Shown here piece after piece: positions 1 through 50,948 of a DNA stretch of 64,000 bases. The translations under genes were made by a program, and so were the position numbers. Origin of the DNA: Deltaproteobacteria bacterium (lineage in GTDB: Bacteria; Myxococcota_A; Polyangia; Polyangiales; Houyiibacteriaceae); NCBI GenBank assembly GCA_013151775.1, contig JAADHO010000298.1, forward strand, positions 2,853 to 66,852, given 5' to 3'. The notes beneath the pieces were generated by a model. It ran no database searches and was not told where the DNA came from. It was given only the letters and a program-made list of their open reading frames with translations. Position 1 is the first letter of the stretch. Each line of letters opens with the position of its first letter.

Positions 1-1212
1 GTGGTCGTGCGCTGGGCTCCGCGCTGGGTCTTGCAGGCACGCGAGACGGAAGTGGGCGCGGTGCAGCGCTTCTGGCATCGGGTGGACGAGTTGCCCATGA
101 CGCTGCGGCTCTCCCTCGACGCCGACAGGCTGATGAAGGGACGAATCGGCGTTCACCTGGCCACCTGGGGGACCCTCGACCTGACCGTGGACACGGAGGG
201 CGGGATCGCCGCTGGAGACGTAGCCCTGGGGTACGTCGACGCGCGTCTGGGCAAGGCGAAGGTCTGGCTCGGCCGGCGCTTCATCACCTGGGGACCGCCC
301 GGTGGACTGCATCTGGACGGTGCCGGCGCCGACGTGGACATCTCTCACGGCTTCTCGGTCGAGGCGTTCGCGGGGCGGCCCGTGGTCTCTCGCATGCTCA
401 CGAGCACCGGCGCTTCGGGGAACCTCACGCAGCCGACGGGCGCCTACGGAGGGCGCGTGTCCTGGGTTCGAGCCGGCTTTGCCTCGGCGAGCGCCGCCTA
501 CGTGCAGCGCTGGTCCCATGGACTCGAGACGGACCGCGTGGTCGACGTGGACTTCTCCGCAAGGCCCTCGAACTGGGCCGACCTGAACGGCGGCGCCACC
601 TGGGATGTGCGCACGTCGCGCCCGACACAGGCGCAGATCGGAGTGGATCTGGTCGCCCATCGCGCCTTCCGCTTGCTGGTCCTCGGGAGCTACGTCGACC
701 CGCGCGCGCTGCTCCCCGATTGGTCGGTCCTGAAGGCCTTCTCCAGCATGCTCTACACAGAGGCGGCGCTCGGCGGCACCCTGCGTGTCAGCAACGGTGT
801 TCATCTGCGGGTCGAGGGCGCCTACCGGCGCAGCTGGCAACCCGATCGACAGGACGGAGAGACGCTCAACGGCTATCGCATCGACGCCTATGTTCGGGGT
901 GTGCCCTGGGGAGGGCGGCCGGGTTATCGCGTGATGGTTTCACGCCGTGACGATGGCGCCATGGGCTACACCCTGGTGCAGGCTGCGGTCGCCTTCGAGA
1001 CGACTCGAGATCTTCAGCTGGCGGTCGAGCTCTCGGCGGCCTTCGACGACGCGCTGGAACGCGAGGCCTACGTAGGGCGCTTGTCGGGAGAGTATCGCGT
1101 CGCCTCCGCGTGGACCGTCGGAGCGGCGCTGGACGTCTCCCGCACACCCACCGCGGACGCAGAGGTGCGTGGCTTGCTTCGGGCGGTTTATCGCCGGGGA
1201 GTGTCCCAATGA
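1..1212 (+). CDS. putative outer-membrane beta-barrel (porin-like) protein, possibly 5'-truncated by the window edge; first gene of the multiheme cytochrome operon
   Basis: The frame is open from base 1 (GTG) to a stop at 1210-1212. Composition is balanced, unlike the Arg/Pro-rich shadow frames. Many amphipathic strand-like segments are present (YTLVQAAVAFETTRDLQLAVELSAAF, AYVGRLSGEYRVASAWTVGAALDV). The stop overlaps the next start (ATGA at 1209-1212). The barrel/porin role is inferred from sequence pattern and context only. Confidence 0.45.
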   Translation: MVVRWAPRWVLQARETEVGAVQRFWHRVDELPMTLRLSLDADRLMKGRIGVHLATWGTLDLTVDTEGGIAAGDVALGYVDARLGKAKVWLGRRFITWGPPGGLHLDGAGADVDISHGFSVEAFAGRPVVSRMLTSTGASGNLTQPTGAYGGRVSWVRAGFASASAAYVQRWSHGLETDRVVDVDFSARPSNWADLNGGATWDVRTSRPTQAQIGVDLVAHRAFRLLVLGSYVDPRALLPDWSVLKAFSSMLYTEAALGGTLRVSNGVHLRVEGAYRRSWQPDRQDGETLNGYRIDAYVRGVPWGGRPGYRVMVSRRDDGAMGYTLVQAAVAFETTRDLQLAVELSAAFDDALEREAYVGRLSGEYRVASAWTVGAALDVSRTPTADAEVRGLLRAVYRRGVSQ

Positions 1213-2312
1213 TTCGCAGCCTGTTCTCGGAGGTCGCAGACCGCAGCGTCCCGTGGCTCTCGTCGGTGGTGCTGCTCGCAGGCCTGCTCTTCGGAGCGGG
1301 CGCGTGCTCCCATCAGGAGGGCCCGGCGCGCGATCACATCAAGTTCTCCCACGGCTCGCACATGGTCTTGGGCGCCTCGTGTCTCGTCTGCCACGGAGAG
1401 GCGGCCAGCCCCGACGCCGGCACGGGCGCCGTAGGGCGTCCCCTGATGCCCGCGGAGGACACCTGCAAGGGCTGCCACATGGAGGGCGAGCAGGCCGCGT
1501 GCACGTATTGCCACACGGATCCCGCCCACCCGAGCACCTACATGCCTTCCGATCGGGACACGCGCTGGCGCCACTCTACACACCAGGCTCCGCAGCGAGG
1601 TCAGTGCCAGCGCTGTCATCGCAGCGTCGGCTCGGAGGAGACGGTGGCCGGCTACAGGCCCGATGTGCCCGACATGGCCACCTGTCTAGGCTCGTGTCAT
1701 CAGCAGCAGGTGCGCTCCTTCGACTGTGCCTATTGTCATCGGGACCTCAGCCGCTTCCGCATGGACCAGGTGTCTAGCGTCGACCATGGATCGGGCTGGG
1801 TCAGGCGCCATGGGCGCCACGCCAGGCAGGACGCCAACCTGTGCACGCAATGCCACGAGCCCACCTTCTGTAGCGACTGCCATGAGGCGTCCGTGGGCGC
1901 ACCCCTCGAGCTGCGTGAGCCCATGCGTGTGTACCGTGACTTCGTCCATCGGGACGACTTCCTCTCGCGGCATCCCGAGGAGGCGCGCCTCGAGCGCGGC
2001 ATGTGCGCACGCTGCCACGGCGTGAGCTACTGTGACGACTGCCATCGGCAGCGCGGCATCGGTGGATCGGTCGCCCCGGGCAGCCCTCATCCCCCCGGCT
2101 GGCTCGACCCGACCTCCGCCAACGGGCACGCGCGCTCCGCCCGACGGGACATCACTCTCTGCGCCGCCTGTCACGAGTCGGACGCGGACACCCTGTGTGC
2201 GGCTTGCCATCGCGTCGGTGGCCCCGCCGGCATCAACCCACATCCACCTGGCTTCGCGGCCGGGCGAGATCCTCTGGCTCACGCCGTCTGTCGGGTCTGT
2301 CACCTACGATGA
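1209..2312 (+). CDS. dodecaheme c-type cytochrome, probable lipoprotein
   Basis: ATG at 1209 sits in an ATGA overlap with the upstream stop. The N-terminus MIRSLF..VVLLAGLLFGAGAC looks like a signal peptide with a lipobox-like Cys. There are 12 CxxCH motifs (CLVCH, CKGCH, CTYCH, CQRCH, CAYCH, CTQCH, CSDCH, CARCH, CDDCH, CAACH x2, CRVCH) plus one CxxxCH (CLGSCH). Motifs are tightly paired, e.g. CTQCHEPTFCSDCH. Confidence 0.9.
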   Translation: MIRSLFSEVADRSVPWLSSVVLLAGLLFGAGACSHQEGPARDHIKFSHGSHMVLGASCLVCHGEAASPDAGTGAVGRPLMPAEDTCKGCHMEGEQAACTYCHTDPAHPSTYMPSDRDTRWRHSTHQAPQRGQCQRCHRSVGSEETVAGYRPDVPDMATCLGSCHQQQVRSFDCAYCHRDLSRFRMDQVSSVDHGSGWVRRHGRHARQDANLCTQCHEPTFCSDCHEASVGAPLELREPMRVYRDFVHRDDFLSRHPEEARLERGMCARCHGVSYCDDCHRQRGIGGSVAPGSPHPPGWLDPTSANGHARSARRDITLCAACHESDADTLCAACHRVGGPAGINPHPPGFAAGRDPLAHAVCRVCHLR

Positions 2313-3511
2313 CCAAGGTCGGTTTCAGTCTCTTGCTCGCGGTCGCCCTGACTGCGCCGCTCTTGACCCGCCCGGCCCGGGCGGAGGAGACATGCATCCT
2401 CTGCCATCGACAGCTTCGTGAGGCTCGACTGCGTCGGCCCGCGGTCGAGTGGCCGACCAGCATCCACGCACAAGAGGAGGTCTCCTGCGTGCTCTGTCAC
2501 GGCGGCAACGGTGAGGACGAGACGGTCAGCGCTCATGATCCCGACAGTGGTTTCATCGGACGTCTCAGCCCCATGCAGCAGGCGGAGCGCTGCGGCGGCT
2601 GTCACGGATCCACCGAGGGCGATCACGCTCCGGACGAGGCTAGCGATGCCTGGGCGCAGTGGCGGCAGAGCGCCCACGGGCGAGCTGCGGAGGCGGGCTC
2701 CTTCGCGCCGGGCTGTGCTGACTGTCACGGCGCTCACGCGGTTCATGAGGTGACCGATCCGCGGGCGACGGTAAGTCGCGCCAACGTGGTCGAGACCTGC
2801 GCCTATTGCCACGCGGATCCCGGGCTGATGGCGGACACGACGCTGCCCGACGATCAGTACGACCAATACATCGAGAGCGTCCACGGCCGGAAGCTCGCCG
2901 AGGGAGACCCCGACGTGCCCACCTGCGCCGATTGTCACGACGCCCACGGCGCGCGTCACGGCACGGAGGCGGCGGCCACGGGCTGCAAGCATTGCCACGA
3001 AGAGATCGGCGCAGCCTTCGATCGGGGCCGACACCACGAGGTGTTCGCGAACTACGGCTTCGTGGATTGCGTCGAGTGCCACGGCAGTCACGAGGTGGCC
3101 GAGCCCGGCGCCTGGCTGATCGGCGGTGGCGCCCAAGCGGCGTGTCGACGCTGTCACGGGCGCGGTCAGGAGGTCTTCGACAAGGTGCGTAAGCTGGGCG
3201 TGGACGTGAACCGAGCCGAACAGGCGCTCGCTGCGGCGAGTGACGAGAAGCGCCAGGAGCTCGAGGAGACGCGCCGAGGCATGGTGTTGGCGCTGCACGC
3301 GCTCGACATCGACGGCGTGAGCGGCGCAGCGGATCGGATCGTGAGCAGCGTAGGTCCGGTCGACACGACAGACGCACAGGCAGCCCCGTCGAGCCATCAG
3401 CCCGCCCACGCTGGGCGCGCTTTCTGGAGTGCCGTGGTTCTGGGTGGGCTCTTCTTGCTGACGCTCCTGGGGGGCGTGCTCGTGGGGCGCGCGCGCAGGA
3501 GGCGCTCATGA
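2309..3511 (+). CDS. nonaheme c-type cytochrome with N-terminal signal peptide and C-terminal TM anchor
   Basis: ATG at 2309 sits in an ATGA overlap with the upstream stop. The signal peptide is MTKVGFSLLLAVALTAPLLTRPARA. There are 9 CxxCH motifs (CILCH, CVLCH, CGGCH, CADCH x2, CAYCH, CKHCH, CVECH, CRRCH). The C-terminus is a hydrophobic helix followed by a basic tail (AFWSAVVLGGLFLLTLLGGVLVGRARRRRS). Confidence 0.9.
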   Translation: MTKVGFSLLLAVALTAPLLTRPARAEETCILCHRQLREARLRRPAVEWPTSIHAQEEVSCVLCHGGNGEDETVSAHDPDSGFIGRLSPMQQAERCGGCHGSTEGDHAPDEASDAWAQWRQSAHGRAAEAGSFAPGCADCHGAHAVHEVTDPRATVSRANVVETCAYCHADPGLMADTTLPDDQYDQYIESVHGRKLAEGDPDVPTCADCHDAHGARHGTEAAATGCKHCHEEIGAAFDRGRHHEVFANYGFVDCVECHGSHEVAEPGAWLIGGGAQAACRRCHGRGQEVFDKVRKLGVDVNRAEQALAAASDEKRQELEETRRGMVLALHALDIDGVSGAADRIVSSVGPVDTTDAQAAPSSHQPAHAGRAFWSAVVLGGLFLLTLLGGVLVGRARRRRS

Positions 3512-5730
3512 GCCCGCGTCACAGAACGTCCGCGCTGAAGCTCGCAGCTTGGTTCTTCGTCTTGGGCGCCTCGGGTGCGGGCGCGCTCTTTGCAGGGCGT
3601 CTGGCAATTCGCGCCGAGGTTCACCATTCGAACGAGTTCTGCGTCGGTTGTCATTCGGCGGCCCCCGCCCATCTGGGAGACCACTCCGATATCGCCTGTG
3701 CGGAGTGCCACGCGATCCCGCAGGGTCAGGAGACCTGGCTCTGGTTCGCCGAAGTGCGTGGTAGCCAGGCTGCTCCGGAGCACGGTGCGGTCGAGGACGG
3801 CGGCTGCAAGAGCTGCCATCAGAGGGACGCAGACGCGTGGACAGACCTGAGCACCTCGAGCGGACACGCTACCCACGCAGACCTGGTCGCGTGTACGCGT
3901 TGTCACGACGGGTCGCTGCACGGCCAACAGGATCCGGACGAGGCCTGCACCTCCTGTCACGAGGCCCCGAACTCCGAGGAGCCCACTGCGGGCGTGGCCT
4001 GCACGACCTGCCACAACTTCGCCGCGGCGCCGTCATTCATCGCCCTCGGAGATCAAGAACGTCGCCGTCCCGACGCCGCCCCCGGAGACGAGCCCGTGGT
4101 CGACGCGTCCCGGCTTCACGGCACCGTGGAGTGCGGTCGTTGTCACGACCCGCATCGGCCCGATCCGACCGGCGAGGTCGCCGCGGACTGCGAGGGCTGT
4201 CACCGGGTGGACCTGCCGGAGCAGGTGGCGGGCGGACCTTCGGGACACCAGAACTGCCGCGGCTGTCACGACATCCATGGCCCGATGGCGCAGCCCGCCG
4301 TCGAGTGCATCCAATGTCACCGCATGCCCAACGGACGTAGCGGGACGCAATGGGAGATCTCCCCCACACCCGTGCCGGAGGTCGAGCGTGCACGTCTGCG
4401 CGCGTCGATCAGCCACGAGGCGCAATGCCAGCGCTGCCACAAGCCTCACACCTGGGTCGCGGACGCGACGCGTTGCGCGGAGTGCCACGAAGAGAAGGTG
4501 AACTCCATCGCGCAGATGCCGCCTGAGAGTCATGGCAACTGCCTGGGTTGTCATGACCCGCATCGGGCGCCGCCCACGACTAAGATCTGCGCGAACTGCC
4601 ACCAGGACAAGACGCGCGCAGTCCGCGCGGCGCGGCCCGCTCGGCACCGCGATTGCACCAGCTGTCACGATCCTCACCAGCGCAAGCCCGCGGCCAATCG
4701 CGTCTGTGGTTCCTGTCACGCCGCGCCCCACGGGCAGCTTCAGAATCAGCCCGCCCAGCACCGCAACTGCGTCTCGTGCCACAACCCGCACGGGAACCCG
4801 CTGCGCGGAGCTCAGAGCGCGTGTGCTCGATGCCATCGGGAGAAGAGCCAGGCGCTGGCCCGCGCCGGTCGGGCCGTGCCTCGGCAGCATCGCTGCGCCA
4901 ACTGTCACGTCCCGCACCAGTTCGCGCCCGCCACCAACGCCCTGCGGCGCTGCTCTTCCTGTCACGCACAGCCGAGCGCGGCCAGCGCCAATCACAGGGA
5001 CACCTGCACGAACTGCCATACGCCGCACCAGGCGCCCATGGGCAGGGCGGCCAACTGTGCGGGCTGTCATCAGGCTGTGCGTCCCGCGGTCCGCGGGCAT
5101 CAGCAGTGCAACCGCTGCCACCGGCCCCACCGCAAGGCGGAGGCGGCCCTGGGGCAGTGCCGCAGCTGCCACGCCTCCGAGGTGCGCGCGCTCGCGAGTT
5201 GGCCCTCGGGCTCACCCCACCGCGGTCAGTGTGCGCGTTGCCACACGCCCCACAACGAGGGGCGCATCGCGGCCTGCTCTAGCTGCCACCAGGATCACCA
5301 GAACCGCCGCCACATGGGGGTCCACCGCCAGTGCACGGGCTGCCACAAGCCGCACCGACCGCGCCCGGCGAACAGCGATTGGCAGAGCCGCTGCGGAGAC
5401 TGTCATCGGGCGCAGGCCGCCGGAGTCGCGCGCTCGAGTGGCACCCACACACGCTGCAAGAACTGCCATCAGGTGCCCGGGCCGCCCCTGCCGACCTGCG
5501 CAGGCTGCCACGAGAACCAGAGGAGTCGGCTGCTGCACTCCGTGCCTCAGCACGGCACCTGCAGCACCTGCCACGAAGACCACAGCAACGCACCGCCCAC
5601 CCGGCGGAACTGCACCCACTGTCATAGGGATCGTCAGAACCATTTCCCCGACGCCCAGACGTGTCAGAGCTGCCACCCCTTCCGGCCCGGCGCGCCCGTA
5701 CGCATGCGCGGCGGACGAGCCGGGCGCTGA
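3508..5730 (+). CDS. giant 33-heme c-type cytochrome with N-terminal TM helix and NapC/NirT-like first heme motif
   Basis: ATG at 3508 sits in an ATGA overlap with the upstream stop. The N-terminal TM is LKLAAWFFVLGASGAGALFAG, followed by HHSNEFCVGCHS. I counted 33 CxxCH motifs by hand. About ten have the form CxxCH-x-PH (CGRCHDPH, CQRCHKPH, CLGCHDPH, CTSCHDPH, CVSCHNPH, CANCHVPH, CTNCHTPH, CNRCHRPH, CARCHTPH, CTGCHKPH), arranged in roughly 35-40 aa diheme modules. Confidence 0.9.
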   Translation: MSPRHRTSALKLAAWFFVLGASGAGALFAGRLAIRAEVHHSNEFCVGCHSAAPAHLGDHSDIACAECHAIPQGQETWLWFAEVRGSQAAPEHGAVEDGGCKSCHQRDADAWTDLSTSSGHATHADLVACTRCHDGSLHGQQDPDEACTSCHEAPNSEEPTAGVACTTCHNFAAAPSFIALGDQERRRPDAAPGDEPVVDASRLHGTVECGRCHDPHRPDPTGEVAADCEGCHRVDLPEQVAGGPSGHQNCRGCHDIHGPMAQPAVECIQCHRMPNGRSGTQWEISPTPVPEVERARLRASISHEAQCQRCHKPHTWVADATRCAECHEEKVNSIAQMPPESHGNCLGCHDPHRAPPTTKICANCHQDKTRAVRAARPARHRDCTSCHDPHQRKPAANRVCGSCHAAPHGQLQNQPAQHRNCVSCHNPHGNPLRGAQSACARCHREKSQALARAGRAVPRQHRCANCHVPHQFAPATNALRRCSSCHAQPSAASANHRDTCTNCHTPHQAPMGRAANCAGCHQAVRPAVRGHQQCNRCHRPHRKAEAALGQCRSCHASEVRALASWPSGSPHRGQCARCHTPHNEGRIAACSSCHQDHQNRRHMGVHRQCTGCHKPHRPRPANSDWQSRCGDCHRAQAAGVARSSGTHTRCKNCHQVPGPPLPTCAGCHENQRSRLLHSVPQHGTCSTCHEDHSNAPPTRRNCTHCHRDRQNHFPDAQTCQSCHPFRPGAPVRMRGGRAGR

Positions 5731-5737
5731 GGAGGAC

Positions 5738-8017
5738 TCAGGCGGGGAGCTTCGCGGCCCGCAGACTGAGGACGGCGATGCCTCCCTCGGTGCGGATCCC
5801 GACGCGCAGGTGGTCGGCATCGTTGGCGGGCGTCCACAGGGCCTCGCCTCCCTCGCCATCGACGGCGCCTTCAGCCTCCCAGCGGGCGCTGAAGTTCGCG
5901 GACACGCCGCCGACGCGCACACGCACGGACTCGCCCTCGCGCTCGACGATCAGCCGCGGCCGGGGAGGCGCGTAGAGAGCGACGGCGCGGCTGCGCTCGG
6001 CGCCCACGGGGGAGGTGTCGCGCCACTGGTCGATCAGTCGGCGGACGGGCACATCCGGCGTCAAGGCGGCGCCCGCGTCTGAAGGTGCGGGATCCACGAC
6101 CATACCGGCGTCGGCGGGTGGCGGGTCGACGACGCTGGCGTCCATGCTGGCGTCGCTGCCTGCGTCCGTCACGCCTGCGTCGGGCGGCAGAGGATCGCTG
6201 ATGCCGACGTCCATCCCAGCGTCCGCCGGCGCCGGGTCGACCACGTTGACGTCCATGCCGGCGTCCATGGGCGGTGGGTCGACGACGGTGGCGTCCATGC
6301 CCGAGTCGGGTGGAGGCGGGTCGACCGAGGTGGGCCCGTTGCCGCACGCCGTGGCGGAGAGCGCTAGCGTCGCGCTCAAGGCCGCGCTCATGGTCATGCG
6401 CCCCACGCCCGCTGAGTTCTTCTTGGCCTCATCGGCGAGCCTCGGCGGGATCGCACGCGTCGTGGCCTCGACGTCGTCCATCTCTTCGTGCCACTCGGCG
6501 TCCGCGGCTGCGATGCGCATGCCGAGGTCCGCGGTCGCGCGTGCGACGCCGTCGCTGTCATCCACATCGAGCCTCTCGGCGAGCTCGATAGCCTGCTCGA
6601 GGAAGTCCGCTGTCTGCTCGGCGATGGCCCGGGAGAGGCCGCGCGCACGTCGCGTCACGTGGCGTACGCTGGGGTGCTCCGCGCCGAAGAAGTGCTCGAG
6701 CACCTTGGCCAGATAGCCCAAGCCCATGTAGCGGTTGCCCACACCGCCCGGAGCGAAGTTGCGCTCTCGGAAGGCCGCCGCGGAGATGCGAAAGAGCAGC
6801 TCCGAGCGAGGATCTTCGAGCCGATAGTCGTAGCCCAGGTAGCTGCCGCTGAGCGTGCCTCGCGCTTCGAGATCGCGCATCAGCGGCGTGCCATAGTAGG
6901 GCTCGGCGCGACAGAAGTTGAAGGGGTGGTCGAGGTGCTCGCGCACGAAGGCGACGTTCTCGCGCACGTCCTCGAGACGCGTGTCGGGCTCGAAGACCAG
7001 CAGGTTGTAGCAGGTGAAGATGCCCGCCTCGGCGCAGGCCGCGAGGGCGCGTCCCACGCTCTCCTGTTGGGTGCCGCGTCGCAGATGCTTGCCGCCCGCC
7101 TCGGAGGCGTTCTCCACGCCCACGTAGAGGCGGATCACGCCGAGGTCGGCCAAGGCGTGCGCCAACTCCACGGTCAGTGTGTCGGGGCGGCACTTGCCGA
7201 CGATGCCCAGCTCGCCCACGCCTCGTGCGTCGAGCTCGGCGCGGATCGCGCGCATGCGCTCGAGCGTCGCCTCGGGCTTCGGCAAGAGCAGGTTGTCGTC
7301 GTGGAAGCAGAAGATGCTCGGCCCCGCCTGCTTCCACAGCCCCGCGATCTCGTCTGCGATGTTCGCGGGGCTGCGCAGCCGGAAGCTCGCGCCGCCGGTC
7401 TGGGATCGTGCGTCGCGGTAGCCCGTGGTGATGGAGCAGTAGGCGCAGCGACCCCAGCAGCCGCGACCGGCCATGATCGGAATGAAGGGCACGCCGAGGT
7501 GGCGGGCGTGGGCCCGGTAGCGTTTGGGGAAGGGCAGGGCGTCGAGGTCGGTGGCGAGGGGGCGCAGCTCCGTGCGCATGGCGACGCCGTCGTCCGAGAG
7601 CAGAGCGAGACCCGCCACCTCACGCAGATCGCCGCCCGTGTTCAGTGCCTCGAGCAGCGCCGCGAAGCTCGCCTCCCCGTCGTGCAGGATCACGCTGTCC
7701 ACACCGTGGCTACGTTCGAGCACCTCGCGGTAGGCCAAGGACGGGAACTGCCCGCCGCTGCTGATGTGGCCCGTGTAGCCGGCTTCGCGCAGCATGCGCG
7801 CGAGCGAGAGGAAGTCGTGGGTGCGATGTTGAAACTGCATCGAGAGCCCCACTAACTCGGGGGAGTCGGCCGCTATCTGTCGGGCCAAGTCGGGTGCGCG
7901 CGCCCCGCTGTCGAAGGGATGGATGGAGACCTCGTGTCCCGCCCTCTCGGCGATGGCGGCGAGCATCCCCGCCCCCAGGTTCTCTTCCAGATCCGCACAG
8001 ATGAGCGCGATACGCAT
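5738..8017 (-). CDS. B12-binding-domain radical SAM protein continuing in frame into a lipoprotein-like C-terminal module
   Basis: ATG at 8017 is preceded by TAGGAGGTCAGCT (GGAGG Shine-Dalgarno). The N-terminus MRIALICADLEENLGAG..VGLSMQF resembles a B12-binding domain. The radical-SAM cluster motif is GRGCWGRCAYCS (CxxxCxxC). From an internal ATG at 6397 the same frame reads MTMSAALSATLALSATAC, then DPPPxDAGMD repeats, then a beta-rich domain. Confidence 0.8.
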   Translation of the reverse strand: MRIALICADLEENLGAGMLAAIAERAGHEVSIHPFDSGARAPDLARQIAADSPELVGLSMQFQHRTHDFLSLARMLREAGYTGHISSGGQFPSLAYREVLERSHGVDSVILHDGEASFAALLEALNTGGDLREVAGLALLSDDGVAMRTELRPLATDLDALPFPKRYRAHARHLGVPFIPIMAGRGCWGRCAYCSITTGYRDARSQTGGASFRLRSPANIADEIAGLWKQAGPSIFCFHDDNLLLPKPEATLERMRAIRAELDARGVGELGIVGKCRPDTLTVELAHALADLGVIRLYVGVENASEAGGKHLRRGTQQESVGRALAACAEAGIFTCYNLLVFEPDTRLEDVRENVAFVREHLDHPFNFCRAEPYYGTPLMRDLEARGTLSGSYLGYDYRLEDPRSELLFRISAAAFRERNFAPGGVGNRYMGLGYLAKVLEHFFGAEHPSVRHVTRRARGLSRAIAEQTADFLEQAIELAERLDVDDSDGVARATADLGMRIAAADAEWHEEMDDVEATTRAIPPRLADEAKKNSAGVGRMTMSAALSATLALSATACGNGPTSVDPPPPDSGMDATVVDPPPMDAGMDVNVVDPAPADAGMDVGISDPLPPDAGVTDAGSDASMDASVVDPPPADAGMVVDPAPSDAGAALTPDVPVRRLIDQWRDTSPVGAERSRAVALYAPPRPRLIVEREGESVRVRVGGVSANFSARWEAEGAVDGEGGEALWTPANDADHLRVGIRTEGGIAVLSLRAAKLPA
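6071..6325 (-). repeat. imperfect tandem coding repeats (about 30-40 nt units) encoding a (V)DPPPxDAGMD linker
   Basis: The peptide reads VDPPPPDSGMDATVVDPPPMDAGMDVNVVDPAPADAGMDVGISDPLPPDAGVTDAGSDASMDASVVDPPPADAGMVVDPAPSDAG. At DNA level, 'gtcgac(c/g)ac..gcgtccatgcc' units recur. Confidence 0.8.
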
Positions 8018-8146
8018 AGCTGACCTCCTAGTCGATGTGTCAAGCCTCAGCCGAAGGCATGTCGGGGTGTTGATTCTGCGCAATTGACAGATCGAGGCTA
8101 AGGTGCTGGCTCACACCATTCCCGCGCGGAGTGCCAGTCGCTGACG

Positions 8147-46556: not shown

Positions 46557-49500
46557 TCAGCGCCAAAGTCGCCGGTTGCCCGGCGGTCGTTCGATCTCGG
46601 TGGAACTGGCAGTGAATGACTCGAGCCGCTTGAGCGTGGCCTTGCCCATGTCCTCGTTCTGAGCCGCGAGCAGCTCCAAGCCGCTCAGGTAGGGGCTCTC
46701 GACGATCGCCCGGACGGCCTTGTCGGTGAGGGCGTTGCCACCGAGCAGCAGACGCCTCAAGCTCGCTGAGTTCGGACTCTTAGCGAGCTCGATCACACCT
46801 TTGTCGTCGATCTCGCTGGCGGTGAGATCGAGGGAGGTAAGCTGACTCAGCAGGGGACTCTTGGCGAGCGTGCTGAGATCCCTCGCCGTGTTACTCGCCC
46901 AGCGAAGCGACCTGAGCGAGCTCAGCCCCGTCCCCTCACATAGCGCCGCCAAGGCGTCTGACTCGAGATGATGCCCCGAGAGGTCCAAGGAGATCATCGC
47001 GCCGAGGTGCGGGCTGTTGGCGAGCGTGGCCACTCCGCGAGCCGTGATCGTCTCGCCTCGTCCGTGCCAGATCGCCTCGAGGTGCAGGTATGCGACGCAG
47101 GAGAAGAGCGGATTCTGCGCGATGGCCTCGACCACGCTGTCATCGAGGTGCACCCGGGACAACTCCAACACCAGGTGCTCGAGGCTCGGATTGGGGAGCT
47201 CGCAGATCGCCGAGAAGCGCTCCGCCCGGCGACGGATGATCGCGTGAACGCTCGGCAGCTCGAGCGAGGTCCCGAGGATCGAGAAGGAGCGCAGCGGCTC
47301 CTCCAACAAGGCCTCCAGGCTGGCTGTCTTGTGGTTGGAGAGATCCAAGGAGCGAAGCTTCGTGAGCGACGCGAGGGCTGAGACGTCGGCGGCGTTGTTT
47401 CCTCCGATGTCGAGGGTGACGAGTTCGGTGGCTCGAGCGAGTGGGCCGTCGTCGTGGATGAAGCACCCAGCCAGCGTCAACTCTCTGAGCCGCTTCGCCA
47501 CCGGCTTGTCCATCAGGGCCGTGAGGCCCGCGTCGCCCAGCCCCGTGCCGCTCAGGTCGAGCGACGTGAGCGAATCGAGCTTGGCGCCAGCGAGCACTTC
47601 CGCGCTGTCCGAGAGGGGGGTGTGGGCGAGGCCGAGTGACGTCAGTCGGCTCAGATCGAGGCGGAGCAGCGCTCTGCCGCCGTCGTCGGACAGGCTCTTG
47701 GCCAGCTCGAGGGACGTGAGCCGCTCCAGCAAGGGCCCGGCCTCCTGAACACCGTCGAGCCCCCCGTTGTCCGACAGGTCCAGCCTGCGAAGAGCCTGCA
47801 GATGCGGACTGGCGACCAGCGCGGCCAGCCCCTCGGCTTTCACGCCATTTCGATGCAGGCCGAGCTCGAGCAAGCCCGACACGCGGGCGCTCTGGGCGAG
47901 GGTCGCCACGCCCGCGGAGTCGAGAGCGTTGAACCTGAGATCGAGCGTCGTCAGCTGGCCGACCAGAGGTCCGCTCAGCAGCGCGTCGACCTCGGCGGAC
48001 TCGATCGATTGCCAGGCCAGATCGAGGGAGGTCAGATTCGGCAGCTTCGCCTGGCTGAGGGCCCGCCAGCCGACCTGCGTGATCGGCGTCTTGCCGCCCG
48101 CAAAGTCATAGAATCCTTTGAACCCAACCCCCAAGATGCCAAGGCTCGTGAGCTTCGTCAGGTGCTCGCTCGCCGAGAGCTCGACGAGTCCGTCATCGTC
48201 GAGTCCGTTGCCGGCGATGACGAGTGAGCTGAGCTCCGTGCAGGCGTCCCAGAGGCCCTGGGTGTGGAGCCGCTCGAGGTCGCCGTCGAAGATCGCCGAA
48301 CGCACCAGACGCCACGCAGGACGTTCGATGATCGCCTGGACCTCTTCCGGGCCGACCGCCTCGACCTTCCTCGAAGCGTCGGGCCACTCCGCGAGCTTCT
48401 CTTCGACCTCATCGAGGAGCACGTCTCCGGCGGGGACGTGCTCGAGGACATCCCAGAGCTGTCGAAAGTTCGTGGCAGAGGGTGACGCTGCGAGCTTCGA
48501 GCAGGCCTCTGCGACGTCGTCGCGAACGCTTGTCCAGAGCGCCTCGGCGAGTGGGCCATCCGCGAGCGCGCGGCGGCAGCGCAGGCGCGCAGCCAGCGAG
48601 AGTTTGGTCAGCCCTGCGAGGTCTTGGAGGGCCGGGTTGTCGCCTAGCATCAAGGTCTGCAGCCGCGGGAGCCCATCGAGCGTGGTCAGGGCGTGACATC
48701 CCCTGAGGTCGAGTGAGCTCAGCCTGAGCGCCGCGAGGCCGGAGAGATCCGTGACGGCGCTGCCCCTCAGGCTCAGCCGCGTCAGGCTCGTGAGCCTGGC
48801 GATGTCGTCCGTCCCGGTGAGCGCCGCCCCCTCGAGGGACAGGCGCTGGAGCGCCTTGGGGAGCGTGGAGACATCCTTCAGCGCCTCGCAGCCCGTGAGC
48901 TCGAGCTGATAGAGCTGGGTGAGCTCGCCCAGAGGCGCGAGGTCCGCCAGCTGCGCGCAGTCGTCGAGCCGGATCCGGGCCGGACCGGCCTCGAAATCCC
49001 AAAACCTGCGCCCAAAACGCTCCAGCCGCTCGACCGGGGAGATCCTTCGCTCCACCAGCGGGGTCAGATCCGTGACCGTCTCCGTCCGATGGAGGTCGAT
49101 ATGGGTCAGGGCGAGGTCTCGGAGGGCGTCGAGATCGCCGAGCTCCGTGTCGAGCTTCCGAAGGCCGTCGAGCTTCCCTTGGTGCGAGAGCAGGCGCAGC
49201 GCGACCCAGCTCCGATGGGGCGCCTTCACGGCCTTCGCGAGCGCTTCGCCCACGTCGAGCTTGCCCTGCTCGCTACAGCTCGTGCCCCGCAGCAGCTCGG
49301 AGATCAGCAGTGGCCTCTCGAGCTCGATCAGCTGTTGGCAGCCGCGCTTGACCGCCTCCATGTCGTCGCTCGCCAGGGCGTCGCGGGCGGCGACCCGCGT
49401 GGCGCTCTCGTCTTCCGTCAACGCGGGGGTGTTGTCGAGGAGGGCGCCCATCGACGTCTTTCGGCGCGCGTGTGTGCGGGGCATCTCCTCGCGCGGCAAG

Positions 49501-50948
49501 GAGAGCGCCAGAGGCAGCGAGCGCACACCGGATCGGCTGAGTATCAGCAGGCGATCTCCCTCGGGGTCGATCAAGAAGCGGTCGGAATCTCGCAGCAGGA
49601 AGAGGCCTCCGGGGATCCGCGCGAGGGGTCGCCAGGCTCCTTCCACGACGGCGCAGATCCAGTCGGACTCGACCCCCTCTACGTTCGCGGAGCCGACCGC
49701 GAGGAGTAGATTTCGCGTGGGCTCCCAGGCGAGAAAGAAGGCCTTGAAGGCGGAGTCGTACACCACGCGAACCCACGCCTCGTCCGTCAGCCTCCACAGC
49801 GCCGTGTCGGAGCTGGCGTACAGGCCGGAGGGGGTCGACACCATGGAGCCGAAGCGGCCCGAGGGCCCCTTGCCCGCGAGCTTGCTCCAGGCACCGTCCC
49901 ACACCCACGTTTCCTTCTTGGTGCAGACGAAGACGCGCCCCTCGTGGACCTGCATGGGCCAGCCGAACTCACCGCGGGGCCCGCCCATGTTGCCGTACCG
50001 TTTCGCGTCCGGCGGGCCGCCGTCGGCGACCTTCGACCACTCGGAGTCGGGTTCGGTGCGCCAGAGCGCCCCGTCTTGGGAGAGGGCGAAGAGGCTCTGA
50101 CCGTCGAGGGCGAGGGCTTGGCTGGATCCGGGAAGGTGGCCTGCCCCGAGCCGCTCCGTCCAACCTTCGGCCAGCGTGCGCACCTCGCCCGTGCGGTTGA
50201 AAAGCACCGCCGCGCGTCCGTCGAGGATGCCAGGGGTGATGGAGTCGATGTCGATGAAGAGCGGATCTTGGATGGGAACGAAGTCTTCGCCAGGCTCTCG
50301 CACGAAGGTGACTTGATTCTCGCGGGAGAACCAACGGCCATCCGGATCCGCGGCCAACGTCGGCCTGCCCAGTTGGCTCTGAAATCGGCCCGCCAGCGGC
50401 GGAAGAGAGCCCTCCAAGGGGACCCACGTCTCCCCCTCCAGGACATGGGGCGTGGACCCCGTCGCGATCAGCCGTCGCGTGTCGGCGTCCCAGAAAGCCC
50501 CGGACACCGTGGGGCTGTCGAAGCTCGTCCAGCCGCCCTCCGTGTCGTATGTCAGCGTCAGGTAGGGCTTGTTTCGCCCGCGGCTCAGGCCGATCACGAA
50601 CTTCTTCTGCGCTTCGTCGAAGGACGCGAAGCGCATCGCGAAGTGGTCGCACTCTCGGCGCTCCAACTCTTGCAACGTGCTGGCATCGAACACGAGCAAC
50701 ATCTTGGCCGCGGAGACGAACAACAGCGTGCGACCCATCCCGTGAGCCAAGAGCGGCACCGCCCCTCGCAGCGTCAGCGCGCCTTCGGGACGCCACGCAT
50801 CCGCGTCCCAGCGCCAGGTTTGCACGAGCGAGCAGGACTCGATGTCTGTGCGTGTGGCCAGGAGCATCGTGCCGAGCTCCGGCGAGAAGGAGAGAGCACC
50901 CCCGGAGGGCGGTACGACGACGCAGTGGTCCCAGGAAAAATGAGTCAT
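46557..50948 (-). CDS. 1463-aa cytoplasmic protein: N-terminal beta-propeller-like region, internalin-type LRRs and RNI-type (ribonuclease-inhibitor-like) LRRs
   Basis: ATG at 50948, no signal peptide. The first ~480 aa are rich in W/G strand repeats (ALWRTEPDSEWSKVADGG, TWVWDGAWSKLAGKG, ALWRLTDEAWVRV). The 22-aa LRRs include LTSLTRLSLRGSAVTDLSGLAALRLSSLDLRGC. The 28-aa LRRs include LTSLDLSGTGLGDAGLTALM and LRRLDLSDNGGLDG. Confidence 0.8.
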   Translation of the reverse strand: MTHFSWDHCVVVPPSGGALSFSPELGTMLLATRTDIESCSLVQTWRWDADAWRPEGALTLRGAVPLLAHGMGRTLLFVSAAKMLLVFDASTLQELERRECDHFAMRFASFDEAQKKFVIGLSRGRNKPYLTLTYDTEGGWTSFDSPTVSGAFWDADTRRLIATGSTPHVLEGETWVPLEGSLPPLAGRFQSQLGRPTLAADPDGRWFSRENQVTFVREPGEDFVPIQDPLFIDIDSITPGILDGRAAVLFNRTGEVRTLAEGWTERLGAGHLPGSSQALALDGQSLFALSQDGALWRTEPDSEWSKVADGGPPDAKRYGNMGGPRGEFGWPMQVHEGRVFVCTKKETWVWDGAWSKLAGKGPSGRFGSMVSTPSGLYASSDTALWRLTDEAWVRVVYDSAFKAFFLAWEPTRNLLLAVGSANVEGVESDWICAVVEGAWRPLARIPGGLFLLRDSDRFLIDPEGDRLLILSRSGVRSLPLALSLPREEMPRTHARRKTSMGALLDNTPALTEDESATRVAARDALASDDMEAVKRGCQQLIELERPLLISELLRGTSCSEQGKLDVGEALAKAVKAPHRSWVALRLLSHQGKLDGLRKLDTELGDLDALRDLALTHIDLHRTETVTDLTPLVERRISPVERLERFGRRFWDFEAGPARIRLDDCAQLADLAPLGELTQLYQLELTGCEALKDVSTLPKALQRLSLEGAALTGTDDIARLTSLTRLSLRGSAVTDLSGLAALRLSSLDLRGCHALTTLDGLPRLQTLMLGDNPALQDLAGLTKLSLAARLRCRRALADGPLAEALWTSVRDDVAEACSKLAASPSATNFRQLWDVLEHVPAGDVLLDEVEEKLAEWPDASRKVEAVGPEEVQAIIERPAWRLVRSAIFDGDLERLHTQGLWDACTELSSLVIAGNGLDDDGLVELSASEHLTKLTSLGILGVGFKGFYDFAGGKTPITQVGWRALSQAKLPNLTSLDLAWQSIESAEVDALLSGPLVGQLTTLDLRFNALDSAGVATLAQSARVSGLLELGLHRNGVKAEGLAALVASPHLQALRRLDLSDNGGLDGVQEAGPLLERLTSLELAKSLSDDGGRALLRLDLSRLTSLGLAHTPLSDSAEVLAGAKLDSLTSLDLSGTGLGDAGLTALMDKPVAKRLRELTLAGCFIHDDGPLARATELVTLDIGGNNAADVSALASLTKLRSLDLSNHKTASLEALLEEPLRSFSILGTSLELPSVHAIIRRRAERFSAICELPNPSLEHLVLELSRVHLDDSVVEAIAQNPLFSCVAYLHLEAIWHGRGETITARGVATLANSPHLGAMISLDLSGHHLESDALAALCEGTGLSSLRSLRWASNTARDLSTLAKSPLLSQLTSLDLTASEIDDKGVIELAKSPNSASLRRLLLGGNALTDKAVRAIVESPYLSGLELLAAQNEDMGKATLKRLESFTASSTEIERPPGNRRLWR

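Follow-up and report, generated by a model that had tools for sequence, protein, structure and literature searches.

How electrons get across the 20–30 nm of the periplasm remains an unsettled point in extracellular electron transfer. Small, diffusing cytochromes such as STC, FccA and PpcA are the presumed carriers in Shewanella and Geobacter, and static periplasmic bridges have, to our knowledge, been proposed but not demonstrated. Anchored multiheme cytochromes that span the periplasm have already been put forward (10.64898/2026.01.22.701106), wire-like modular cytochromes are known (PMC11492766), and cytochromes with 34 hemes have been reported from Geobacter (PMC10989804). ImcH from G. sulfurreducens is a homologue of the NapC/NirT/NrfH proteins with extra hemes, an uncleaved N-terminus, and a heme 1 by the membrane that is not ligated by two histidines (bis-His); it has three transmembrane helices and seven hemes, its homologues have one to three helices and five to nine hemes, and it donates electrons to soluble PpcA (10.1101/2023.05.03.539133). 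Judged by this published description, ImcH is the closest functional analogue of the protein described here, a 33-heme cytochrome encoded on a 64,000-nucleotide stretch of a Deltaproteobacteria metagenome-assembled genome (MAG; assembly GCA_013151775.1, contig JAADHO010000298.1, positions 2,853 to 66,852; “the window” in the following). With moderate confidence, we propose that this protein is an inner-membrane-anchored periplasmic heme wire, and that its gene closes a conserved cluster with which Myxococcota exchange electrons across their envelope. In this setting, electrons probably pass over the periplasm along the long heme chain and are exchanged with the outside of the cell.

The gene for the 33-heme cytochrome occupies positions 3508..5730 (+ strand), as established by translation of the open reading frame (ORF), motif count, and alignment of 85 full-length homologues. 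Its product of 740 aa is identical to the NCBI entry “hypothetical protein GXP55_17615” from a Deltaproteobacteria MAG. A script counted 33 CxxCH motifs, ten of which read CxxCHxPH, so that the same coordinates and counts were recovered as in a first-pass annotation of this DNA. All 66 cysteines lie within CxxCH motifs, 40 of the 73 histidines are free, i.e., located outside of the motifs, and a motif scan of the protein for CxxCK or longer-spaced CxnCH variants found none. From the composition of the protein itself, about 0.6 CxxCH motifs would be expected by chance (736 x 0.0892^2 x 0.0986), compared to 33 observed. The computed 22.4 residues per heme agree with the earlier figure of one heme per ~22 residues, but neither this density nor the number of hemes is without precedent: Geobacter has 34-heme cytochromes, and heme density is similar in STC and c7.

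A Shine-Dalgarno sequence, AGGAGG (3497..3502, +), can be read off the sequence 5 nt 5′ of the ATG; this start codon forms an ATGA overlap with the stop of the preceding gene. Tandem Repeats Finder and direct-repeat scans detected no tandem repeats at the DNA level within the gene, and ruled out a recent duplication or assembly artefact; the sole DNA repeats are 20–37 nt long, 69–81% identical, and located at CxxCH codons. Since there is no tandem repeat but just these short matches, the heme array is old and diverged. Because of the canonical Shine-Dalgarno sequence, the ATGA overlap, the absence of DNA tandem repeats, and the retention of the motifs in 85 homologues, both a chance ORF and an artefact of assembly can be dismissed, and the gene encodes a real, conserved cytochrome of uncultured myxobacteria.

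About 90 full-length relatives were found, which are 29–70% identical and 660–830 aa long, and which carry 32–34 heme motifs almost without exception. In the family alignment of 85 sequences, each of which stems from a Myxococcota MAG (mean column identity 28%), all 33 CxxCH motifs are invariant or nearly so, and exactly 32 free histidines are conserved in at least 80% of the sequences. The same alignment contains no conserved Met, Lys or Tyr, with a median of four Met per member. The modular heme motifs of what had been described as a quasi-periodic tandem array are therefore real, but the array is not a loose one, as homologues hold 32–34 hemes at fixed positions. A HMMER scan of 1.84 billion representatives yielded 120 proteins at E<=1e-30, of which ~45–50 gave a single full-length colinear match. 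Among species-representative genomes, searched with a profile from a 10-sequence alignment, orthologues were found only in MAGs of Myxococcota (Polyangiales, Sandaracinaceae, and others), with 33–42% identity over the full length. Matches of ~25% identity in Rokubacteria, Acidobacteriota, Desulfobulbaceae and other groups were rejected as members, because these proteins have 26 hemes, are lipoproteins or secreted, and lack the NapC-like N-terminus. They point to a separate 26-heme family of ~650 aa and ~25 aa per heme, again lipoproteins or secreted proteins, in Desulfobulbaceae, Acidobacteriota, Betaproteobacteria, and other MAGs (L029–L035, L040; e.g., L029 2030–4078). Within the 33-heme family, the subclade P0031–P0068 has CxxxCH in place of the first CxxCH (e.g., FCAGSCH, FCASSCHH), often with a second His next to it, which suggests that the environment of the membrane-proximal heme 1 may be altered in these proteins.

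The N-terminal part of the protein resembles NrfH, NapC, NirT and CymA (PF03264; 2J7A chain C). A NapC/NirT/NrfH-like tetraheme module (residues 41–139; 3628..3924, +), recognized by hhalign, profile and PF03264 matches, holds hemes 1–4 at C45, C64, C100 and C129 together with the conserved histidines H59, H92, H120, H123 and H138. Two added hemes, 5 and 6 (C147, C165; 3925..4023, +), with invariant motifs, complete a six-heme N-terminal unit, in which five conserved free histidines are available for six hemes. The grammar shared by the family consists of basic residues, a helix, ~12 aa, (F)CxSCH, gH, CQxCH, a Leu-rich amphipathic helix, HG, CxxCH, GHrxH, and CxxCHxxxxH. Comparison of the N-terminal profile with NrfH by hhalign (Prob 96.1, E=3.2e-9, 93 columns) aligns hemes 1–4 as well as the His after heme 4, and hmmsearch finds NrfH (2j7a_C, E=1.9e-10) in one colinear stretch from profile positions 3–112 to chain positions 3–130. 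PF03264 is matched by 25 of 40 N-terminal slices of the family at E<=0.01 (best E 8.7e-9), and by the N-terminal part of the window protein alone at E=0.005; Pfam searches with the full-length protein return just c7/c3-type families and no PF03264 match.

Upstream of this module, the context of the first heme motif, HHSNEFCVGCHS, comes after an uncharged segment of 19 residues, LAAWFFVLGASGAGALFAG. This hydrophobic helix (residues ~12–30; 3541..3597, +) is a probable uncleaved inner-membrane anchor, as indicated by the uncharged run, the AlphaFold2 (AF2) helix, and the alignment with the transmembrane helix of NrfH in the profile comparison. Across the 85 members, the median length of the uncharged run is likewise 19 aa, and it reaches at least 18 aa in 64 of them; the median number of Lys and Arg residues is four before and about two after the run. 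The gap from the run to the first heme cysteine is 14 aa here, with a family median of 12. AF2 predicts one continuous helix (residues 3/9–40) with a predicted local distance difference test (pLDDT) score of 86–98, which runs into heme 1, and no conserved cleavage motif follows the hydrophobic segment in the family. These features suggest that the helix is retained uncleaved and would hold the protein in the inner membrane. The NrfH profile and hhalign matches, the PF03264 matches, and the helix data support the homology of the N-terminal segment to NapC/NirT/NrfH at the level of sequence. The likeness extends from the N-terminal helix, with (F)CxSCH ~12 residues on, over four colinear hemes and the His after heme 4, to the amphipathic helix after heme 2; one heme lacks a conserved distal His, which would be compatible with a heme without bis-His ligation at the quinol site. 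In contrast to the NrfH/NapC family, the 33-heme protein has 29 extra hemes (33 compared to 4–5) and an extra GHxxH pair between hemes 3 and 4, and no NrfA or NapAB partner is encoded nearby. With ImcH, it shares a NapC/NirT/NrfH-derived base with added bis-His hemes and a context of extracellular electron transfer, but differs in having one helix, 33 hemes, and no soluble shuttle in the cluster.

A variable linker of low predicted order (residues 173–200; 4024..4107, +; pLDDT <50 at 175–194, poorly conserved columns) leads over to the main heme array (4108..5682, +). According to motif spacing and His grammar, the array comprises 13 diheme modules (hemes 7–32) and a terminal heme 33. Each module of ~38 aa follows the pattern H-x2-3-CxxCH-x-(P)H ... 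CxxCH, which is repeated 13 times, and hemes 7–33 are matched by 27 conserved free histidines for 27 hemes. Because 27 histidines are available for hemes 7–33 and five for hemes 1–6, there are enough conserved histidines for all hemes but one to be ligated in bis-His fashion, and the exception lies within the N-terminal six-heme unit. The bis-His ligation suggested in the first-pass annotation is thus permitted by the histidine count. Its estimate of about 14 tandem diheme modules is right for the diheme nature of hemes 7–32, but has to be corrected to 13 modules plus a single heme 33, with hemes 1–6 being distinct. Comparison of the profile with itself revealed internal repetition but did not recover the basic unit, as the offsets were ~57, 182, 281 and so on; the diheme unit is therefore defined here by the grammar of motifs and histidines.

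Profile matches relate the repeat region to several known multiheme cytochromes: HmcA (2e84, E=8e-20), GSU1996 (3ov0_A, E=1.4e-19), 6r2q_A (E=7e-17), STC (E=3e-8; two consecutive diheme modules, hemes 19–22, on the four STC hemes), and c7 or PpcA (E about 1e-5 or better). The PDB table labels 6r2q_A (333 aa) as “Cystathionine beta-synthase”, yet the alignment is that of a decaheme cytochrome, and the label looks wrong; 6R2Q is, we presume, the MtrCAB complex with MtrA as chain A. Against the NCBIfam model TIGR03508 (MtrA/DmsE decaheme), the protein scores 28.1 bits, far from the cutoff of 192.2, and the CctA score is also far below its cutoff. The proteins of the STC/CctA, MtrA/DmsE and HmcA types are similar in sequence to the repeat region, and the heme density comes near to that of STC, but they are soluble or porin-inserted, carry 4–16 hemes, and lack a NapC-like base.

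The best colinear match of the repeat region is with GSU1996, in one stretch of 286 profile positions (273–558, to chain positions 21–317). Like GSU1996/GSU0592 (3OV0), the 33-heme protein possesses a modular, high-density heme array. However, GSU1996 is a soluble protein of 12 hemes in four triheme c7 domains of ~80 aa, whereas the 33-heme protein has four hemes per ~76 aa and a membrane anchor. In the alignment, every fourth heme motif lies opposite a heme-less SHExH segment of GSU1996. GSU1996 contains one His-Met heme per c7 domain, for which the 33-heme family, without a conserved Met, has no counterpart. The relation to the GSU1996-type c7 polymers that the first-pass annotation had invoked is therefore real, but the unit is a diheme of ~38 aa and not a triheme c7.

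The 33-heme gene is the last of four genes in the order porin-like, 12-heme, 9-heme and 33-heme, which are linked by ATGA overlaps at 1209/1212, 2309/2312 and 3508/3511. The operon is visible from the porin-like gene (1..1212, +) onwards, which the left edge of the window truncates. Over 98% of its length, the product shares 40% identity with a 438-aa, signal-peptide-bearing protein that occupies the same cluster position in locus L002 and ~18 other loci. Neither Pfam nor the PDB yielded a match for the window copy, and the complete homologue gives only a weak match to Porin_4 (E=0.012), so that the protein is called a putative outer-membrane β-barrel here. It is followed by a 12-heme cytochrome (1209..2312, +; 12 CxxCH, Pfam Cytochrome_C7), a probable lipoprotein with a lipobox-like signal (LLFGAGAC), which is 54% identical to a 351-aa multiheme cytochrome of L002. 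Besides its N-terminal signal peptide, the 9-heme cytochrome (2309..3511, +; 9 CxxCH) has a helical or disordered stalk of ~110 aa and a transmembrane helix at the C-terminus, which reads FWSAVVLGGLFLLTLLGGVLVG-RARRRRS; the protein shows a weak DmsE-decaheme-like match, and its topology is that of cytochrome c1 or CbcA. In L002, L004, L050, L052 and L053, the 33-heme gene is immediately preceded by a homologue of the 9-heme gene, which it overlaps by 4 bp. The 9-heme cytochrome is thus a conserved, translationally coupled partner of the 33-heme protein.

In relatives, these genes belong to a larger cluster, the order of which could be read from ~25 loci. It starts with a small triheme cytochrome, an NrfC-like iron-sulfur protein, an NrfD-like membrane protein, a 205-aa protein and a 10-heme cytochrome, continues with the porin-like protein, the 12-heme cytochrome, Rieske and cytochrome b proteins in some loci, the 9-heme cytochrome with its C-terminal transmembrane helix and the 33-heme protein, and may end with an MtrC-type decaheme and an 8-heme cytochrome, both of which are variably present. 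The decaheme of relatives is of the MtrC/MtrF type (PF22113, 2.3e-55), and NrfD and Fer4_11 genes occur in nearly all loci with enough flank. Where Rieske/cytochrome b is present (L004, L008, L012–L017, L019–L024, L050, L052, L053), it is inserted between the 12-heme and 9-heme genes; of 21 informative genome loci, 14 have it immediately 5′ of the 9-heme/33-heme pair, as do L050, L052 and L053, and it is absent from the window and from L002/L005, L006, L007, L009, L010, L018 and L025. A Rieske/cytochrome b complex within a porin-cytochrome cluster is unusual. In L051 (12141–14285), the gene of a 34-heme homologue (P0075) precedes that of a 714-aa multiheme cytochrome, which matches Ni_hydr_CYTB weakly and is a CbcL-like fusion of cytochrome c and cytochrome b and, as such, an alternative quinone-module partner. 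In the divergent P0071 locus, a porin/multiheme cluster begins with the N-anchored homologue, and no other quinone module was found within 10 kb. This conserved context of porin, multiheme, NrfCD-like and Rieske/cytochrome b genes had been missed by the first-pass annotation, and offers alternative routes of electron entry.

In its overall composition, the cluster is reminiscent of the Pcc/MtrCAB and CbcL/CbcBA/Cbc4 systems: it includes a porin-like protein, lipoprotein multihemes, an MtrC/MtrF-type decaheme in relatives, NrfCD-like proteins, and a multiheme cytochrome with a C-terminal transmembrane helix beside cytochrome b. Unlike in those systems, all modules are united in one operon-like cluster, Rieske/cytochrome b is present in most loci, and an anchored 33-heme protein stands in place of soluble periplasmic carriers. 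Literature searches found no description of the 33-heme family or its gene cluster. Considering the precedents mentioned above, the family is not categorically new, but it offers a clearly delimited and conserved candidate for a static bridge that conducts electrons over the periplasm.

As an anchored periplasmic wire, the protein would swap electrons with the (mena)quinone pool at its membrane-proximal, NapC-like base, either at heme 1 itself, like NrfH, CymA and ImcH, or via the NrfCD-like proteins, or Rieske/cytochrome b and the 9-heme partner. From there, electrons would hop over the tightly spaced low-spin hemes towards the porin-cytochrome module of the outer membrane. At ~0.8–1 nm per heme, by analogy with MtrA and GSU1996, a linear chain would reach a length of roughly 25–30 nm, which is comparable to the width of the periplasm, and the nearly invariant number of 32–34 hemes suggests that this length may be fixed. 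From these features, we infer that the protein could oxidize quinol directly, span the full periplasm, and form a continuous chain; its sequence fits outward as well as inward electron flow. The anchored-wire reading is supported by P0071, where the N-anchored homologue is the only candidate for a quinone-linked component within 10 kb. A stricter version is tentative: the protein could be a hard-wired cable of fixed length, with its NapC-like foot beside the Rieske/cytochrome b or NrfCD modules and its 33 hemes forming one path of ~25–30 nm that docks on the outer-membrane porin-cytochrome complex. Diffusing shuttles would then be dispensed with, and the heme number would act as a ruler for the width of the periplasm.

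Several observations weigh against an anchored wire with a quinol-oxidizing base. The 143-aa N-terminal slice of the window protein scores 22.1 bits against PF03264 (E=1.4e-4), below the gathering cutoff of 24.1. Heme 1 of the window protein reads CVGCHSA and thus lacks the CxxCHxM signature; the CxxCHxM...W..SxH signature of NapC/NrfH is kept only in the distant members P0057, P0062 and P0090, and the equivalent of the quinol-site Lys/Asp of NrfH is not conserved in the 85-sequence alignment. Strict Pfam membership of the window copy and conserved quinol-site residues are therefore not supported, and the NapC/NirT-type N-terminus claimed in the first-pass annotation holds good as NrfH homology with four colinear hemes, but not with regard to the PF03264 cutoff and CxxCHxM. 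Structure prediction is equivocal: the full AF2 model has a predicted template modelling score (pTM) of only 0.42 (mean pLDDT 80), the low-confidence linker at 175–194 separates hemes 6 and 7, and Foldseek returned no PDB match at E<=10 for the full-length model. For a model of the N-terminal part (pLDDT 87.8, pTM 0.74), Foldseek against the PDB gave nothing but noise at E>3 with this heme-free query; heme-free models of loop-rich cytochromes make poor Foldseek queries, and these results speak neither for nor against the NrfH fold. Moreover, all family members derive from MAGs, and nearly every locus carries other quinone-reactive modules by the gene, i.e., Rieske/cytochrome b, NrfCD-like proteins, or the CbcL-like fusion. 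It follows from these co-encoded modules that direct quinol oxidation by the 33-heme protein is not required.

This leads to the main rival explanation, in which the protein is anchored and periplasmic but its NapC-like base no longer oxidizes quinol. Electrons would enter only via co-encoded quinol:cytochrome c oxidoreductases, either Rieske/cytochrome b with the 9-heme protein as an analogue of cytochrome c1 or CbcA, or the NrfCD-like proteins with the small triheme cytochrome, and the 33-heme protein would be a tethered output wire. The neighbourhood data give this possibility real weight and make it a strong rival, although we rate it less likely than the main reading: Rieske, cytochrome b, 9-heme and 33-heme genes follow each other in overlapping order in the 14 of 21 loci mentioned above and in L004, L050, L052 and L053, including the locus of the most NapC-like member, P0062, and NrfD and Fer4_11 genes accompany nearly all well-flanked copies. 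The loss of CxxCHxM from most members, the window protein included, points in the same direction, as does Geobacter CbcA, which shares the topology of a C-terminal-transmembrane multiheme beside cytochrome b. However, there is no obvious reason why heme 1 and its distance from the anchor should be invariant if the base were a dead end. Also, the sole heme without a conserved His sits in the NapC-like unit, as in active members of that family, window-type loci have lost Rieske/cytochrome b, and the P0071 locus lacks another quinone module within 10 kb.

Compared to an anchored wire, two further explanations are less likely. The N-terminal helix could be a cleaved Sec signal peptide, in which case the mature protein would be soluble, either in the periplasm or secreted, and serve as a 33-heme carrier or capacitor similar to GSU1996; we consider this improbable. 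The usual layout of n-region, h-region and small residues, which might form an AxA-like site, would allow for cleavage; the related 26–27-heme proteins are lipoproteins or secreted, and the N-terminal profile also matches the signal peptide and first hemes of OmhA (6qvm_A), so that NrfH-like N-terminal matches can arise from signal peptides. Yet the h-region is long for this purpose (median 19 uncharged residues, at least 18 in 64 of 85) and followed by no conserved cleavage motif, the NrfH match covers the uncleaved transmembrane helix of NrfH and runs on colinearly through the hemes, and AF2 places a single confident helix between the hydrophobic segment and heme 1. A compact arrangement, with the array of an anchored protein folded back into an electron store or multi-partner hub near the inner membrane and no bridge to the outer membrane, appears similarly remote. 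HmcA, among the best sequence matches, is a compact 16-heme protein; the pTM of 0.42 for the full model and the flexible segments predicted at 175–194 and around 450–520 would fit as well. However, a linear chain fits the strictly conserved heme number and the serial modules with one His per heme, and no small soluble shuttle for bridging the periplasmic gap to the outer membrane is encoded in the cluster. Published work bears on both explanations: the homologue ImcH was shown to be uncleaved (10.1101/2023.05.03.539133), and GSU1996, which gives the best colinear match to the repeat region, is elongated and wire-like (PMC11492766).

The remainder of the 64-kb window holds nothing else of the system. 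The gene after the 33-heme gene is convergent and 7 bp off; neither a terminator nor promoter-like sites were found near the 3′ end of the 33-heme gene, and an Rfam scan of the window gave no match. The downstream B12-radical SAM and PD40 genes were considered as partners and rejected, because they do not recur beside any homologue. The ORF for a B12-binding radical SAM protein (781 aa; 5738–8083, −) continues in frame into a lipoprotein-like signal, MTMSAALSATLALSATAC, beyond which lie DPPPxDAGMD repeats, rich in Pro and Asp, and another domain at the C-terminus; two genes or an unusual fusion could account for this. A leucine-rich-repeat protein of 1463 aa (46557–50948, −), as well as sulfatase and sulfotransferase/TPR genes elsewhere in the window, appear typical of large myxobacterial genomes and unrelated to the cytochrome.

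With the 33-heme family, the range of NapC/NirT/ImcH architectures is extended from 4–9 hemes to 33. A single polypeptide that combines a quinol-dehydrogenase-type foot with a heme chain of conserved length, and that is encoded in one operon with an outer-membrane module, is a candidate for a static bridge, and makes the question of wire versus shuttle directly testable. If the protein does act as a fixed-length cable, electrons would travel from the quinone pool to the cell surface wholly through protein-bound hemes. The presence of Rieske/cytochrome b in a porin-cytochrome cluster also bears on energy conservation in metal respiration or electron uptake. For the organisms, the finding suggests that uncultured Polyangia and Sandaracinaceae are likely to be electroactive.

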